A DNA stretch of 56,477 bases, filler included, from Nitrospirota bacterium (lineage in GTDB: Bacteria; JACPQY01), in the NCBI GenBank assembly GCA_016180645.1. It is 2 parts of 2 records of this genome, joined end to end, with 100 filler letters (N's around TTAATTAATTAA, not from the genome) between each part and the next. Parts side by side here need not be neighbours in the genome. Positions count along the whole stretch, not along the records: positions 29,508 to 56,477 come from JACPAV010000044.1; 1 more part is not named here. The stretch is one strand, 5' to 3'. The notes under the pieces were generated by a model, which was not told where the DNA came from, did not search any database, and saw only the letters and a program-made list of their open reading frames with translations. Every line of letters starts with the position of its first letter. The stretch's first letter is position 1. Shown here piece by piece: positions 37,185-47,529 of this stretch. The translations under genes were made by a program, and so were the position numbers.

Positions 37185-37373
37185 GTTGTCGTGGGGAGCA
37201 GCATAACGAAGGCCGGCCGTTTGCCAATAGTCGAAACTGTGAGCGGGATGTAGCGGTTTGTACTACAGGGCGGACTAGACGCTGTTTGAAAACCTATCTC
37301 TGCGGTAGCCGCAGGCCATGGTCCATGCCGCGCCATCCTGGGCGCGGCGACATATCATGGCCCCGTACCCTCC

Positions 37374-37428
37374 GTGGCACGGGGCTTCAGCCTGCGTCCG
37401 AAGACGCACCCGTGAAGGGTGCGCCTAC
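37374..37428. repeat. Intergenic REP doublet
   Basis: ...CCTGCGTCCGAAGACGCACCC-gtgaa-GGGTGCGCCTAC. Same family as 31742-31797. Confidence 0.8.
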
Positions 37429-37470
37429 CAGGAGATCCCTTCCGGCAACGATGGCGTTTCCAAGCATAGG

Positions 37471-42606: not shown

Positions 42607-44748
42607 ATGAAACTCCTTCTCCGGCATCATCTGGGCGTCCTGAGCCTGGGCGGCGCGGTCCTCTGGGCGCTCGGTTACTACGATGCGTCCAGCCGTCTCA
42701 CCTACCCCACGTTGTTCTACTTGGTGCTGATTTCCGTTCTGTCGTTCTACCAGCTCTTTGGCTACCTCAAAGATCGGCATCCAAGTTGGGCCGGGCAGAT
42801 CGACCAGGCGGCCGGCCTCGGGATCAGCATGCGTGTCATGATCCAGGCGCTCGGAGGCTTCGAAAGCCCGTTCTATCCGGTTCTCTATCTGGCGATGGCG
42901 TTCGGATCGGCGGTCTTCAGCGTCCCCGTCGTGTTGGGCCTGGCGGGGTTTGTCGTCGGCATGGAGCATGTGCACGATTGGGCGGCGGGAACATGGTCTG
43001 CGCACTACCCGGGGGAAGTGGTGCGTCAGCTCATGACCGTGGCGTTCGCCTTCCTGCCGGGATTCTTCCTTCACCAGGAGAGGAAAGGGCGCCAAGCCTC
43101 GCAGATCCGCCTCCGCGCATTCGAGAAGGAGGCGCAATTCTTCGATTTCCTGAGGTTCACGGAACCCGGAAACGGCCGCCACGCCTTGGAAAAGATCTCG
43201 AAAAGCAGCCGCGAGCGGGATCTGGTGGCGATTTTGAGTGACGGCGATCGCCCGCTGGAGGAACTGACGAACTACCTTTTCGAGAAGCTCAAGCCGAACA
43301 CGGCGGCGGTGTTCATGGTGGACAATACGCGGGAGTCCGTGTGGCTCCGGAAATGGAAATCCGCGGGCAACCATCTCGACATCTGCCATCCGATCCCTTT
43401 GCGGGACAGCATTTTCGCCTGGCCGTACAACCAGAAGAAGAACCTGTACATCCCCGATGTAAAATCGCCGGACGTGCTCCAGTACTACACCGAGCCGCCG
43501 CCCGTGCGATCGTTGCTGTGTTCACCGGTCACGGTGGATGAGGAAGTGGCGGGATTCATCGTGCTGGATTCGCTGGAAGGGGACGCCTTCGAGAGCCAGC
43601 AGGATGCGCTCATGGGACTCAGCCGGGCGTATGCCGCGCACGCGGTGAGAACGCTCAAATCGATGCAGTACATTCATCAGGAGGGAATCGTTTTCTCGAC
43701 CTTCAACCAGGCGTCGCAACGGATCAGCTCGAGCCTCAACCCGCGTGAGATCGCCAAGGCGGTGGGCGAGGTGGTCAAGGGCGTTCTGGAGTGCGACGTG
43801 GTCGCCCTGGCGATCTACGAGACGGTTCCGGAGCGCATCGCGATCTATCATCCCATCGGGCTGAAACTCATTCAGGGCCGCTCCCGTGGCCACGCGCAGG
43901 AAGAGGGAGAGCCGATCGTCATCCGCCCAGGAGAAGGGATCATCGGGTGGACGATCGATCATAAGGAGCCGTTCCCAAAATTTACCGTGGACGACCGAAT
44001 GGCGCTCCTTGGGGATGAGGTTCGGCTGGAGGAGATCCGATCCTTCACGTGCCTTCCCCTCAATCTCAAGGAGCAATGTCACGGGGCACTGCTGGTCGGC
44101 TCGTACGAAAAGAACTACCTCGATGCGCGCGACCTGCACATCCTGCGCAATATTGTTTCTCAGACGGCGCTCGCCGTGGCGCACTCGAAGTCCTACCGGG
44201 AAAAGGAAATGCAATCGCTCACGGACGGTCTGACGACGCTGTACAACCGGCGCTACTTCTTGGAGGCCCTGGAGCGTGAAATCGACCGCGTGGAGCGATT
44301 CCCAGAGGAGTTCACGGTCCTCCTCATGGATCTGGACCACTTCAAGAGAGTGAACGACACGTTCGGCCACGCGGCCGGGGATCTGGTGCTCAAGAAAGTG
44401 GCGCGGCAGCTCAAGAGTTCCACACGCCGAATCGATACCATCGCCCGTTACGGCGGTGAGGAGTTCGGGGCGATCCTCGTGAACACCGTCGAGAAGGAGG
44501 GAGCCCGGTTTGCGGACCGAATTCGCCGGGAGGTATCGCAGCTTTCGTTCCCGGTGGCGGAACTCGGCGTGGCGGGGAAGGGAGTCGTGCAACTCAGCGC
44601 AAGCATCGGCGTGTCGGCCTTTCCGCACGACGCCCGGAGCTCGAAGGAGTTGGTCGACCGGGCGGACAAGGCTTTGTACTACGCGAAGAACACCGGACGC
44701 GACCGCGTCTCCACGTATTCGCGCATCAAGAACCTGCTGCCGAGCTGA
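42607..44748 (+). CDS. Membrane-anchored GAF-GAF-GGDEF diguanylate cyclase
   Basis: N-terminal TM helices, two GAF-like domains, 'DLDHFKRVND.FGH..GD', intact I-site (RxxD) and GGEEF. Confidence 0.92.
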   Translation: MKLLLRHHLGVLSLGGAVLWALGYYDASSRLTYPTLFYLVLISVLSFYQLFGYLKDRHPSWAGQIDQAAGLGISMRVMIQALGGFESPFYPVLYLAMAFGSAVFSVPVVLGLAGFVVGMEHVHDWAAGTWSAHYPGEVVRQLMTVAFAFLPGFFLHQERKGRQASQIRLRAFEKEAQFFDFLRFTEPGNGRHALEKISKSSRERDLVAILSDGDRPLEELTNYLFEKLKPNTAAVFMVDNTRESVWLRKWKSAGNHLDICHPIPLRDSIFAWPYNQKKNLYIPDVKSPDVLQYYTEPPPVRSLLCSPVTVDEEVAGFIVLDSLEGDAFESQQDALMGLSRAYAAHAVRTLKSMQYIHQEGIVFSTFNQASQRISSSLNPREIAKAVGEVVKGVLECDVVALAIYETVPERIAIYHPIGLKLIQGRSRGHAQEEGEPIVIRPGEGIIGWTIDHKEPFPKFTVDDRMALLGDEVRLEEIRSFTCLPLNLKEQCHGALLVGSYEKNYLDARDLHILRNIVSQTALAVAHSKSYREKEMQSLTDGLTTLYNRRYFLEALEREIDRVERFPEEFTVLLMDLDHFKRVNDTFGHAAGDLVLKKVARQLKSSTRRIDTIARYGGEEFGAILVNTVEKEGARFADRIRREVSQLSFPVAELGVAGKGVVQLSASIGVSAFPHDARSSKELVDRADKALYYAKNTGRDRVSTYSRIKNLLPS

Positions 44749-44829
44749 GCGGTCAAGCAAAAGTGCGCTTGGAGTTTGGTGAATTCTCCGTGTCGGATCC
44801 CTGACAAACCCGCTCAGGTCCCGAGGCTA

Positions 44830-44892
44830 AACCTCGATCGGACGCTGGCGAAGGCCGCCCGTGCAATGGGCTTCGAGGTCGTCGAGCCGTAG
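44830..44892 (+). pseudogene. Possible remnant of a PIN/VapC toxin C-terminus
   Basis: Reads NLDRTLAKAARAMGFEVVEP*, resembling the PIN C-terminal 'T.D..L..AA...G..V'. The upstream frame is unrelated. Confidence 0.35.
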
Positions 44893-45006
44893 TTCGACGG
44901 GAAGCTGCCCGCGCTCAGGTTGCCCACACTAGTCCAGGATGGTAGTCTTGCCCCCCACGTATCACGAGTAACGTGCGACGTGTAACGCGCCCCCCTCGGG
45001 GGCGGG

Positions 45007-45027
45007 GAGGCTGTAGCTCAGTCGGTA
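45007..45027 (+). repeat. 21-bp duplicate of the tRNA-Lys 5' end (to the D-loop)
   Basis: GAGGCTGTAGCTCAGTCGGTA, identical to 45115-45135. Confidence 0.92.
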
Positions 45028-45114
45028 CCAGCCATGGATGGTGCGGCACCGACGTGGCGCGGCAGGACGCCGCCCATCGCGGGTAGACTTGCAGCGGCCA
45101 AGTAGAGAAGTGTT

Positions 45115-45187
45115 GAGGCTGTAGCTCAGTCGGTAGAGCATCTGCCTTTTAAGCAGGGGGTCGCGAGTTCGATTCTCGCCAGCCTCA
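45115..45187 (+). tRNA. tRNA-Lys (TTT), CCA not encoded
   Basis: Acceptor stem GAGGCTG/CAGCCTC, anticodon loop CTTTTAA, T-loop TTCGATT. Confidence 0.95.
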
Positions 45188-45211
45188 TCAGCACCGTCCC
45201 CGGCAGGCTCG

Positions 45212-45240
45212 TTGACTTTTCCAGGAGGGGAGTCTACTTT
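45212..45240 (+). promoter_or_regulatory. sigma70 promoter for tRNA-Glu
   Basis: TTGACT-N17-TACTTT, 15 nt upstream of the tRNA. Confidence 0.55.
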
Positions 45241-45255
45241 CTCGTCTTCCGTTCG

Positions 45256-45330
45256 GTCCCCGTCGTCTAGCCTGGCCTAGGACACAGCCCTTTCAAGGCT
45301 GTAACACGAGTTCAAATCTCGTCGGGGACG
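45256..45330 (+). tRNA. tRNA-Glu (TTC), CCA not encoded
   Basis: Acceptor stem GTCCCCG/CGGGGAC, anticodon arm CAGCC-CTTTCAA-GGCTG. Confidence 0.95.
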
Positions 45331-45428
45331 CTCCTGTGGTTCATGAGGAAAGAGGGTCCAGGGCTTTTCGTTCCGGCCTCCTGCCTGACGAGGCCGATCC
45401 CTCCGTGGCGCGGCGAAGAATCGTGCAG

Positions 45429-45443
45429 CGGAGAGGGAGGGAT
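45429..45443 (-). repeat. 15-bp duplicate of the tRNA-Ser 3' end (from the T-loop)
   Basis: CGGAGAGGGAGGGAT, identical to 45534-45548. Confidence 0.85.
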
Positions 45444-45533
45444 CAACAAATGGCTCTCCTGCAATTTGTTCATCCCCAAAGTTGTCGCGCATCCTGCGCT
45501 CCATGGAGGTCTCTCCGAATACGCTTCGCGTAT

Positions 45534-45620
45534 CGGAGAGGGAGGGATTCGAACCCCCGGTCCCCGTAAGAGGACGCCCGCTTTCAAGGCGGGTGCTTTC
45601 GGCCGCTCAGCCACCTCTCC
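45534..45620 (-). tRNA. tRNA-Ser (TGA), long variable arm, CCA not encoded
   Basis: GGAGAGG...CCCGC-CTTGAAA-GCGGG...GTTCGAATC...CCTCTCCG. Confidence 0.95.
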
Positions 45621-45730
45621 GTGAAACTGTGCAGGCCATCGGAAACGTCTCCAGTCTATCTCGCCCATCCTTCCATGGCCCGCCTTATCCGGCAATGGAG
45701 TCGGCCCTCCTGGCCTCCATTTCCTTCCGG

Positions 45731-45767
45731 TCAAGGCGGGTGCTTTCGGCCGCTCAGCCACCTCTCC
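45731..45767 (-). repeat. 37-bp duplicate of the tRNA-Ser 5' half (ends exactly after the anticodon)
   Basis: Identical to 45584-45620. Confidence 0.93.
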
Positions 45768-45782
45768 TCATGAATTGTGGTC

Positions 45783-46910
45783 TTACTTCGTCGTGCTTGT
45801 GGTCGTGCCGGATGACGTGGTCCCGACCGTGGTGCCCGTGGCGGCCCCGGCGACTTTGTACGTTCCGCACCCCGTGATCTCCACGGTGACGGGGGTCGTG
45901 CCGGTGAAGATGATCTTTCCAGATTTGGCCGGCTCGTCCTCGCCGCATTTGGCCGGATCGATGACCACGTCCTTCAGCTCAACGGTTGCCTTGCCTTTGG
46001 CGCCTTGTTTGGCATCTTCGTCGTAATGAACGAACTCGCCCGTCGCGTTGACGGTGGCGGTACCGTCGGAATTCTGCGCCGCGGAGCCCTTGACGCTGTA
46101 GATATCCTGGCTGCCCCCATCGCCGCCCTCGCAGATATCGCTACTCTTCTCGTCGAACTGAACGGTCGAGCTGCTCCCTGAGATCGAGGCATGATCCTCG
46201 ATGGCGCACTTTCCCTTCTTGCCCAGGACCGTCAATTCCGTCGTGAGGGAAAGATCTCCCTTGGCCGTGAAGGAGGAGGTGCCCACCGTAAGCCCGGTTG
46301 AGGTGAAAAGGCCTTGGCCGGTGAACGACGCACCGAACGCGTCGCCCGAGGTGAGCGTCAGCCCATCGAACTTCATGCCGATCGCCGCATCGCCCTTGGT
46401 GAGATCGGACGTCCCCTGGATGAGGAGTGCTCCTTCGACACGAAACCCTTCAGGAGTCGTGCAACCGCCCTTGATCTGGACATCGACAGTCGAGCCGCTG
46501 GTGTTGTTGACCGTGGTGGGGCAAGGGCCGGAGGTCTGACGGGAGAGAGAGCGGCGCAGGAGGCGTCGGGGGGCTCCCGACATGCCGAAAAAGTCATCGC
46601 CGATCGACGCGATTTCGTTCGGATCGATGCTGCTCTTGATTTGTCCAAAGTGTACCGTTTCGAGCAAGTCGGCGGTGATCTCCTCGGCTCCGGCCGCGGC
46701 TTCCTTGGAGCCGTAGGCGGCTTGGGACAGCCCCGAGAGGGTCTGATCGATCTTCCCGGTGTCCTTGACGTCGGCTTCCTGAACTCCGGTTGCCGCTGAA
46801 GAGACGGCGGACCCGCCTGATGCCGCGGCTGTGGACTTGGAGGCATCCTCTCCGCAGGCCATCAGGAGCGGCACGGTGAGCAGCAGAGTTGTTTGCAGCA
46901 GGTGTTTCAT
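45783..46910 (-). CDS. Hypothetical lipoprotein, beta-strand rich
   Basis: Lipobox MKHLLQTTLLLTVPLLMAC, GGAAGG SD. Confidence 0.8.
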   Translation of the reverse strand: MKHLLQTTLLLTVPLLMACGEDASKSTAAASGGSAVSSAATGVQEADVKDTGKIDQTLSGLSQAAYGSKEAAAGAEEITADLLETVHFGQIKSSIDPNEIASIGDDFFGMSGAPRRLLRRSLSRQTSGPCPTTVNNTSGSTVDVQIKGGCTTPEGFRVEGALLIQGTSDLTKGDAAIGMKFDGLTLTSGDAFGASFTGQGLFTSTGLTVGTSSFTAKGDLSLTTELTVLGKKGKCAIEDHASISGSSSTVQFDEKSSDICEGGDGGSQDIYSVKGSAAQNSDGTATVNATGEFVHYDEDAKQGAKGKATVELKDVVIDPAKCGEDEPAKSGKIIFTGTTPVTVEITGCGTYKVAGAATGTTVGTTSSGTTTSTTK

Positions 46911-46935
46911 TCTTCCTTCCTTTCTTGAAATTGCG

Positions 46936-47529
46936 CTAGCGAGGGGCGTCCTCCACGAGACCTTCATCAAAGAATTGCCTCAGAATGCGACCGGTGGCGC
47001 CCCAGATGTCGTAACTCCCGAATTGATAGTGGGGAATGGTGAACGTGTAGAGATCGACATGCACGGGCGGGTCTTCGTGATAGATGGCCGGATTGCGCAG
47101 GGCCGCGATGGGTGCCGTAAAGATCTCCCTGATTTCCACCTCCGAGCGGATACGCGCCGCCGCTCCGTTCTTGATCCAACCCACGAACGGACTGATGCAG
47201 AAACCCGAGGGGGTCGGCTGATCGTCCAACCGGCCGAGAATGACGATGTCCGCCGATTTCACACCGATTTCCTCTTCCGTTTCGCGGAGGACGGTGTCCG
47301 TCAGATGCACGTCCGTGGAATCGGCCACGCCGCCGGGGAAAGAAATTTGCCCTTTATGGTGTTCGACCGTATCCGTCCGCACGGTGAAAAGGATATGCGG
47401 CTGATCCTCGAGGGAGAGAATGGGCAGGAGCACGGCGGCCCGGCAGAGTTTGGTGGTGGCCAGCCGCTGAACCGGTCGGTCCCGCAACGAGCGGCGCACC
47501 TCATCGGCCAGCGTGAACGGTTGGGTCAT
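46936..47529 (-). CDS. CoA pyrophosphatase (NUDIX, NudL-like)
   Basis: 'AAVLLP', 'HKGQISFPGG', 'LRETEEEIG', 'IWGATGRIL'. Confidence 0.9.
   Translation of the reverse strand: MTQPFTLADEVRRSLRDRPVQRLATTKLCRAAVLLPILSLEDQPHILFTVRTDTVEHHKGQISFPGGVADSTDVHLTDTVLRETEEEIGVKSADIVILGRLDDQPTPSGFCISPFVGWIKNGAAARIRSEVEIREIFTAPIAALRNPAIYHEDPPVHVDLYTFTIPHYQFGSYDIWGATGRILRQFFDEGLVEDAPR

Follow-up and report, generated by a model that had tools for sequence, protein, structure and literature searches.

The tRNA locus and its partial copies

In a Nitrospirota bacterium (JACPQY01; GenBank assembly GCA_016180645.1), working genes for tRNA-Lys and tRNA-Ser are flanked by partial copies of themselves, and the spacers between copy and gene carry small hairpins, several of them with a GGA-containing loop. 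The locus (45007-45767) lies in a stretch of 56,477 nt, filler included, that joins two parts of this genome and was analyzed as a whole; this stretch is called the window and all coordinates refer to it. The tRNA genes and the fragment repeats of the locus are the following.

45007-45027, plus strand: 21-nt copy of the tRNA-Lys 5' end, ending in the D loop; 100% identical to 45115-45135, spacing 108
45114-45189, plus strand: working tRNA-Lys(ttt), called by ARAGORN and by Rfam (RF00005, 76.3 bits)
45256-45331, plus strand: tRNA-Glu(ttc), from tRNA gene calling and Rfam; no fragment duplicate of at least 11 nt within 450 bp
45421-45443 versus 45526-45548, minus strand: tRNA-Ser 3' repeat, 87% identical, spacing 105
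45533-45621, minus strand: working tRNA-Ser(tga), from tRNA gene calling and Rfam
45731-45767, minus strand: 37-nt copy of the tRNA-Ser(tga) 5' part, running through the anticodon; 100% identical to 45584-45620, spacing 147

The exact tRNA duplications of 21, 37 and 15 nt reported in an initial annotation of this DNA were all recovered by a repeat search of the stretch, the shortest of them as the exact core of the 3' repeat (45429-45443, ATCCCTCCCTCTCCG on the minus strand), and their break points fall where they had been placed: in the D loop, right after the anticodon and in the T loop, respectively. All three repeats run in the orientation of their own tRNA gene. The outer Lys fragment (45007-45027) is probably the old 5' end of tRNA-Lys, displaced from the gene.

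A single close genome was available in the collection for comparison: the relative G001, a Nitrospirae metagenome-assembled genome of 3.3 Mb with 42 tRNAs, which shares 81% amino acid identity on a PilB-like protein and is not syntenic at the locus. All tRNA-wide statistics given below come from this relative alone.

Hairpins with GGA loops

The six A(N)GGA hairpins named in the initial annotation are all present within 1 nt of their reported places; GCC-ATGGAT-GGT has a stem of just 3 bp, and the hairpin given as CC-ATGGAA-GG is better read as the 4-bp CCAT-GGAAGG-ATGG. Two additional hairpins proposed nearby did not hold up. At 45375 there is a 7-bp stem with a 9-nt loop that contains AGGCA and no clean GGA loop, and at 45399 the 3' fragment pairs over a long range, through 8 bp, with ACGGAGGGAT.

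The count of GGA hairpins covered the five non-tRNA spacers between 45028 and 45730 and took in stems of 4 bp or more with loops of 3-8 nt and GGA in the loop or the closing pair. Seven were found on the tRNA-sense strand (two of them share one GGA) and none on the antisense strand. Dinucleotide shuffling of the spacers gave a mean of 1.35 such hairpins (standard deviation 1.19), and none of the 1000 shuffles reached seven, so that the enrichment of GGA loops and their sense-strand bias are real at this locus; over the whole window, GGA-type loops occur in 11.5% of 2894 hairpins. In an Rfam search of the whole window only tRNA reached the gathering score and no CsrB/Rsm family was matched, and an E-value scan of 44000-47000 returned neither a Csr/Rsm family nor an intron family.

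Serine spacers as decayed tRNA copies

The sequence on both sides of the working tRNA-Ser gene is made up of four parts.

45429-45519, minus strand: decayed cloverleaf-like tRNA-Ser copy, downstream of the working gene (from the fold and a three-locus alignment)
45520-45532, minus strand: small hairpin UACGC-GAA-GCGUA in the fold, directly past the tRNA-Ser 3' end
45622-45688, minus strand: proximal part of the Ser 5' spacer, with a leader, a -10-like TAGACT (45653-45658), the hairpin CCAT-GGAAGG-ATGG (45669-45678) and UAAGGCGGG (45679-45687)
45689-45730, minus strand: anticodon-loop insert, a 42-nt hairpin CCGG...CCGG with the apex GGCC-AGGAG-GGCC at 45703-45715

On the 5' side, sequence and fold place the 42-nt hairpin within the upstream partial copy of tRNA-Ser, immediately behind its anticodon, and in the predicted fold CCCGCCUUG pairs with UAAGGCGGG and thereby re-forms the anticodon stem (CCCGCC/GGCGGG) around the insert. 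An alignment shows that the 45622-45688 block is also found upstream of the tRNA-Ser(tga) gene of G001, a gene without an exact copy of its 5' half. A tRNA intron (group I or bulge-helix-bulge) was considered for this insert and rejected, because the upstream copy has no variable arm, T arm or 3' acceptor strand past the insert.

On the 3' side, an acceptor-like stem CGGAGAG/CUCUCCG in 45429-45519 encloses the palindrome CTCCATGGAG, the hairpin GCGC-AGGAT-GCGC (45487-45499) and a T stem GGGAUG/GAUCCC, and a hairpin of 26 nt whose own loop is AGGAGA (45445-45470) sits in the T loop. The predicted fold has a minimum free energy of -42.5 kcal/mol (z -4.51), and none of 200 shuffles was as good. 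Because the segment folds in a cloverleaf-like manner, the 15-bp fragment that the initial annotation described as a Ser duplication broken in the T loop is read here as the end of a decayed copy with a plugged T loop: the repeat is exact as stated, but it is not isolated and terminates a whole decayed copy. Rather than being a free-standing cassette, much of the two Ser spacers is tRNA copy in decay, into whose loop positions hairpins have been inserted.

Covariance analysis of these spacers revealed conserved GGA loops over covarying stems. In the alignment of three Ser loci the T-loop hairpin has 14 pairs, 5 of which show compensatory changes while the loop is kept. Each of the four tRNA-Ser genes compared has a hairpin with an (A/U)GGAU loop about 40 nt to its 3' side; across these genes pairing is kept in 15 of 16 cells, the GGAT does not vary and 2 of the 4 pairs are compensatory.

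The lysine spacer and module S1

The Lys spacer is composed of a distal and a proximal part.

45028-45083, plus strand: distal part, module S1, with the motif CCAGCC-ATGGAT-GGTGCGGCAC followed by the hairpin GCGGC-AGGAC-GCCGC at 45059-45073
45084-45114, plus strand: proximal part, with a -10-like TAGACT (45084-45089) and a short leader resembling that of the G001 tRNA-Lys gene

The opening motif of S1, CCAGCCATGGA-GG-GCGG, also starts an insert that splits the 5' fragment of tRNA-Ser(cga) at the D loop in G001 (locus L082). A search of G001 with the motif, at no more than 2 mismatches, gave 13 matches versus 6 for the reversed control; part of them fall inside open reading frames and may be due to chance. 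Five S1-type units carry two GGA hairpins each, about 31-38 nt apart by our count. At one locus of G001 (L163) the S1 copy sits between two copies of the 10-nt repeat GACTGCCGAC. At another (L166 1500-1830, contig C67) three tandem S1-type units lie on the minus strand, 68-69 bp apart, and adjoin a plus-strand 3' fragment of tRNA-Glu, an orphan that is remote from the gene for this tRNA. The possibility that these tandem units are a CRISPR array was rejected, given a repeat of only about 22 nt and units that carry the S1 hairpins. A metagenome scan with the S1 motif CCAGCCATGGANGGYGCGG returned 80 loci, none of which is S1-like beyond the motif; judging from the flanks, practically all of them match by chance within coding DNA.

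Recurrence in relatives

The layout recurs in G001 at tRNA-Lys and at three tRNA-Ser genes, where the GGA loops are conserved and the stems covary. At tRNA-Lys (L081) a 17-nt 5' fragment stands at the orthologous place and is followed by a related spacer. The tRNA-Ser(cga) gene has a copy of its 5' half and then, at the same position as in the window, a 44-nt insert homologous to the 42-nt hairpin; around GGCC-AGGAG-GGCC, 19 nt are identical in the two inserts (plus strand: GTCGGCCCTCCTGGCCTCC). It is this half copy that is itself split at the D loop by the S1-type insert, and the segment after its 44-nt insert, GGCGCC, fits the local anticodon stem at 5 of 6 positions. The tRNA-Ser(tga) gene shows a more decayed version of the window layout. 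Every fragment copy matches its neighboring tRNA and not the tRNA of another locus, which indicates either that the modules were inserted independently or that the flanks have been kept alike by recombination with the adjacent gene.

A scan of the tRNA loci of G001 found same-strand tRNA fragments of at least 12 nt within 450 bp at 8 of the 42 tRNAs, a count that leaves out one Thr/Tyr cross-match between neighboring genes. When matches of at least 11 nt are considered, 22 of 23 are on the same strand (three of the 23 come from the window). In a control made of 29 loci from other relatives, same-strand fragments were present at 2 of 51 tRNAs. One of these two is the tRNA-Lys(ttt) gene of G018, a more distant relative with a lower GC content (L148 1488-1710), whose 5' end is copied over 27 nt, followed by a spacer of 113 nt that includes a CCAGGAGG segment, and which has 3'-end copies downstream. 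In 40 further relatives of G001 the tRNAs match and the spacers do not.

The strand bias seen at the locus does not extend to the tRNA genes of G001 in general, since its 42 tRNA flanks contain 39 GGA hairpins on the sense and 26 on the antisense strand. In the trailer hairpins of tRNA-Cys it is the antisense strand that carries GGA, and the 42 tRNAs show no further conservation of their trailers.

Small GIY-YIG genes beside tRNA genes

Open reading frames of 81-87 aa that match the GIY-YIG nuclease domain (E 7e-15 to 4e-8) are located directly 3' of the G001 genes for tRNA-Leu(gag), tRNA-Pro(ggg) and tRNA-Arg(ccg). After each of the three there is a tRNA copy in which hairpins of the CCCGCC-n-GGCGGG type interrupt the D, anticodon or T arms or take their place. 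These reading frames account for three of the five PF01541 matches in G001. The best PDB match of the G001 GIY-YIG proteins is UPF0213 BH0048 (E 0.0095), followed by SLX1; for the three tRNA-linked proteins, NCBIfam models returned only a group I intron endonuclease, and this below threshold (E 0.0086; 16 bits where the cut-off is 56). The 3' side of the tRNA-Ser gene in the window has the architecture of these G001 cassettes minus the reading frame, and the window as a whole harbors same-orientation partial tRNA copies with inserts at the anticodon (45689-45730), in the T loop (45445-45470) and at the D-loop junction (45027/45028).

The other two GIY-YIG genes of G001 are small and related, and do not lie at tRNA genes (L338, about 1057-1360; L339, about 1053-1360), being wedged between other genes. 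Each is flanked by a 15-nt inverted repeat, CCCCGCACCTATCCT / AGGATAGGTGCGGGG, a layout that resembles the repeat-gene-repeat organization of the Ssn nucleases as outlined in the main text of PMC11893778.

A dispersed 72-nt repeat

The same kinds of loops occur in a structured repeat of 72 nt, which consists of an ANGGAG-loop hairpin, an outer stem GGCCATG/CATGGCC and an inner hairpin that covaries and has CAGGAU as its loop. The window contains one copy, away from the tRNA locus.

37314-37385, minus strand: copy of the 72-nt structured repeat, within the intergenic stretch 37185-37470

In G001 the repeat has 51 blast matches, many of them at contig ends. Relative to co-directional flanking genes, called by ourselves, four copies are in the same and four in the opposite orientation, and about eight copies lie between convergent genes. 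A covariance model of the repeat, run on 15 G001 loci, found one copy upstream of tRNA-His and matched the S1-type insert of L082 weakly (E 0.37). G001 also has eight matches to the Y1 transposase domain (PF01797), in open frames of about 280-340 aa (e.g., L335, L336 and L337). The model search detected no copies of the repeat beside the Y1 genes at the 3 of 8 such loci examined, nor beside the GIY-YIG genes. Since a repeat with the same loops shows no orientation bias, the loops appear to be recognized as DNA.

Promoter-like boxes and leaders

A number of tRNA genes in G001 have TACAAT/TACACT-like boxes at 20-40 nt upstream, and TAGACT occurs at a matching distance in both 5' spacers of the window, downstream of the hairpins. 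Promoter positions are assigned solely by this comparison with other tRNA upstream regions, as a sigma-70 consensus scan of 44700-46000 returned 0 sites. Given the place of TAGACT, the hairpins of the two 5' spacers may lie outside the pre-tRNA leader. No T runs follow the hairpins of the locus, and the single terminator-like site (45214-45234) compares with a mean of 1.2 in shuffles.

Short tandem heptamers (TTCACGA, CTCACGG/A, CTTTACC) stand directly upstream of several G001 tRNAs (L090, L093, L094 and L105) and are a candidate feature of promoters or leaders in this lineage. They are also found in the window at 44955-44985, directly upstream of the outer tRNA fragment, and leaders with such repeats abut the outer tRNA fragments of G001 at L081 and L082. 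The fact that leaders of the type found upstream of intact tRNA genes abut the outer fragments fits the idea that these fragments are old 5' ends.

Variation in natural populations

The duplications are not assembly artefacts, as independent assemblies of two other samples show them. Logan contigs of two runs from the same study, X3 and X4, reproduce the fragment-spacer-fragment arrangement of Lys (X3 record 10 and X4 record 18), and the Ser 5' unit is reproduced in an X3 contig (record 14). The samples are natural groundwater.

The Lys unit (45007-45135) is covered at about twice the depth of its flanks (90 versus 40-44 in X3; 9.5 versus 4-4.9 in X4), and the contigs that contain it end exactly at the repeat ends in both runs. 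From the doubled depth and these contig ends it follows that the genome probably has either two tandem units of 108 bp or a second identical copy, which the assembly of the window has probably collapsed. In X4, on the other hand, a contig joins 45583 straight to 45731 and skips 147 bp at the depth of the flanks (4.19), and the spacer bins of this run have depths of 0 to 2.8. The X4 sample therefore contains, on the evidence of this one low-depth contig, an allele that lacks the 147-bp Ser unit (45622-45730 plus 45731-45767). Two runs from two other studies, X5 and X10, contain a relative that is about 88% identical from 45429/31 to 45620, with 23 and 24 differences in about 190 nt.

Proposed origin as nuclease-less remnants of tRNA-targeting cassettes

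The reading that we favor, with a probability of roughly 0.55, is that the working Lys and Ser tRNA genes are flanked by partial copies of themselves with hairpin-plugged loops, that these are remnants or miniatures of cassettes from which the nuclease is missing, and that they originated at the level of DNA. Most likely, tRNA-targeting selfish cassettes left these structures in the DNA as unstable scars; a role as regulatory RNA sponges is not proven. The initial annotation had proposed miniature tRNA-targeting elements; insert-like modules bounded by tRNA repeats, conserved and polymorphic, are indeed present, but the Ser spacers turn out to be largely a decayed tRNA copy.

In the mechanism that we propose, a tRNA gene would break within a loop, and repair or invading DNA would supply a replacement gene segment together with its own promoter-proximal sequence. 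A complete gene would be restored and the old fragment, being displaced, would be left behind as a direct repeat in the same orientation. Such redundant fragments could then gather small GC-rich hairpin modules at the positions of the D, anticodon and T loops, and continued recombination between the direct repeats would give rise to variants in copy number and in presence or absence, of which the doubled Lys unit and the Ser allele without the unit would be examples. The GGA-loop hairpins would come from a lineage-specific repertoire and would probably be recognized as single-stranded or cruciform DNA by a nuclease or a transposase. This scheme of break and repair fits the data because leaders abut the outer fragments, the breaks are at loops, and the nuclease genes are found in fresh-looking copies. 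A simple tandem duplication of promoter plus 5' fragment was considered for the origin of the repeats and rejected, since the DNA upstream of the outer fragments is unlike the spacers.

Several observations weigh against the cassette reading. A tblastn search of the window with the three tRNA-linked proteins detected no GIY-YIG gene or remnant (best E 0.048, and no match in 45000-45800). The hairpins on the nuclease side in G001 are of the CCCGCC type and differ from the AGGA-loop hairpins of the window, so that the link to the nuclease is one of shared architecture and lineage, not of sequence. The covariance model of the 72-nt repeat matches its own copy in the window well but not the tRNA spacers (E up to 10), which makes the link between them one of style and loop sequence, not of family membership; additionally, the orientation count of this repeat is small (4 versus 4) and depends on our own open reading frame calls. 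With a single close genome, ancestry and independent insertion are hard to separate. The deletion allele is one low-depth contig in X4, from an assembly at k=31 across a 37-nt repeat. Finally, the sense bias and the conserved loops over covarying stems fit an RNA function equally well.

Alternative explanations

The first alternative to be weighed is that the hairpins are ordinary parts of tRNA transcription units, i.e., terminators, RNase sites or promoter-region structures, and that the fragment copies are incidental local duplications. The covarying (A/U)GGAU hairpin about 40 nt 3' of four tRNA-Ser genes would be explained in this way, and so would the proximal spacer block that is shared with a G001 gene lacking an exact 5' copy. 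However, the hairpins lack T runs, with one terminator-like site at the locus; the trailers are otherwise unconserved among the G001 tRNAs; and the exact repeats of 21 and 37 nt, the loop-specific breaks and the inserts inside fragments are left unexplained. We regard this explanation as unlikely.

The initial annotation had itself concluded that the spacers are transcribed together with the tRNAs and that their A(N)GGA hairpins bind and titrate CsrA as decoys derived from tRNA precursors. FliW is a protein antagonist of CsrA, and the loops of the spacers fit the A(N)GGA / CAGGA(U/A/C)G type, which we take to be that of a CsrA site. The enrichment of GGA loops on the sense strand alone (7 versus 0, reached in no shuffle) speaks for a decoy, as do the loops that stay invariant while their stems covary (four tRNA-Ser trailers, three T-loop inserts) and the distance of about 31-38 nt between the GGA hairpins in five S1-type units. 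The csrA gene is present in G001, as a reading frame of 105 aa that adjoins fliW and overlaps the start of this gene (182 aa; L290 2909-3771, contig C30), and a precedent is provided by the rRNA operons of Escherichia coli, for which internally transcribed small RNAs are described that interact with Hfq and CsrA in vitro, according to the part of PMC8144298 available. On the other hand, the pairing of csrA with fliW in G001 argues against a decoy, as does the lack of a CsrB/Rsm match in Rfam; the -10-like boxes would place the promoters downstream of the S1 and S2 hairpins; the 72-nt repeat has the same loops without any bias in orientation; GGA is antisense in the tRNA-Cys trailers and the 39 sense versus 26 antisense hairpins around the G001 tRNAs show little of the asymmetry seen at the locus; and part of the population can do without the Ser 5' unit. 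We consider such decoys very unlikely and, on balance, an origin at the DNA level is likelier than a CsrA sponge. A broader version, in which the GGA modules act in RNA and the tRNA trailers, leaders and read-through products make up, together with dozens of 72-nt repeats, a distributed CsrA-titrating pool that spreads by insertion into tRNA loops, appears similarly improbable.

As to the csrA locus of G001, its overlap with fliW is the partner-switch arrangement of flagellated bacteria, and just downstream the opposite strand encodes an HDOD/HD protein.

Direct repeats of tRNA segments with a crossover in the anticodon or T loop are a signature of integration by tyrosine recombinases, and integrases have preferences for sublocations within tRNA genes; we know of no integrase precedent for a break in the D loop. 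That the repeats are attachment-site scars, left between attL and attR by integrase islands or prophages that entered the tRNA genes and were later deleted, is suggested by the 15-nt 3' repeat of tRNA-Ser, which fits the integrase pattern, but it is highly doubtful, given that two of the three repeats are 5' segments and thus atypical for integrases, that the spacers of just 87-110 bp are nonetheless conserved as a family between two genomes and Ser isoacceptors, and that the four flanking reading frames tested contain no integrase domain.

Comparison with known systems

A search of the literature on GIY-YIG nucleases and tRNA duplication, on miniature tRNA-fragment repeats and on CsrA and tRNA spacers, supplementary files being outside its scope, found no description of hairpin-plugged partial tRNA copies. 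To our knowledge, insertion into tRNA-loop positions is not a feature of repetitive extragenic palindromic (REP) elements. The 72-nt repeat resembles these and the bacterial interspersed mosaic elements (BIME) in being a dispersed, mosaic, GC-rich hairpin module that is often found between convergent genes, in a genome (G001) with Y1 genes; it differs in that no copies lie beside the Y1 genes examined (3 of 8), and the hairpins of the tRNA spacers are missed by the model of the repeat. The spacers share with CsrB/RsmZ several A(N)GGA motifs in short hairpin loops, but they have no match in Rfam, are located in tRNA flanks, possibly upstream of a promoter, and belong to a FliW-type lineage; any role of CsrA is putative.

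The integrative elements treated in PMC9897764 leave tRNA fragments that are likewise same-orientation partial copies near an intact gene, with breaks in the anticodon or T loop; compared with what is described in the available part of that source, the window has 5' fragments, spacers of 87-110 bp, hairpins in loops and no integrase, and the pattern recurs at many tRNAs of one genome. SegB of phage T4 is a free-standing GIY-YIG homing endonuclease whose gene resides in a tRNA gene cluster (PMC2330249, available portion). The likeness consists of a small GIY-YIG gene among or next to tRNA genes, as in G001, and of a presumed cut in a tRNA gene followed by copying of the flanks, which would apply here by analogy. 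On the other hand, SegB is encoded by a phage, the portion of the source available describes no hairpin-plugged partial tRNA duplications, and the window lacks a nuclease gene. The Ssn proteins are very small single-domain GIY-YIG nucleases acting on single-stranded DNA, and hairpin repeats of 20-50 nt (NTS/SRM) flank their genes and are dispersed in the genome (PMC11893778, main text). Very small single-domain GIY-YIG proteins in the company of hairpin repeats are common to both systems, and the 15-nt inverted repeats at two G001 genes suggest a further analogy; unlike these, the hairpins of the window have AGGA loops and lie inside copies of tRNA fragments, and the main text of PMC11893778 mentions tRNA 0 times.

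tRNA genes are classical landing sites for large integrative elements, and here they collect very small structures, whose layout in a relative occurs beside tiny GIY-YIG genes and which are still changing within a natural groundwater population. If the link to the nuclease is true, they would represent a compact class of selfish DNA that targets the cloverleaf of tRNA genes and spares the host in that one gene always stays intact. The loop-specific break points suggest concretely what single-domain GIY-YIG proteins may cut, and the conserved GGA loops pose a question separate from the origin of the cassettes. Such structures also affect annotation, through pseudo-tRNAs and through repeats that collapse in assemblies.

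Neighboring genes and other observations

A domain search of four reading frames flanking the locus detected no recombinase or integrase domain, and blastn of 44950-45800 against a phage collection gave matches to tRNA-Ser only. The flanking genes encode a GGDEF protein, an ABC1 protein, a PilB/MshEN ATPase (T2SSE/MshEN) and a reading frame of 395 aa without a family. Elsewhere in the window, 88 N in at least two runs occur at 29408-29464 and beyond, and were read as a scaffold gap.

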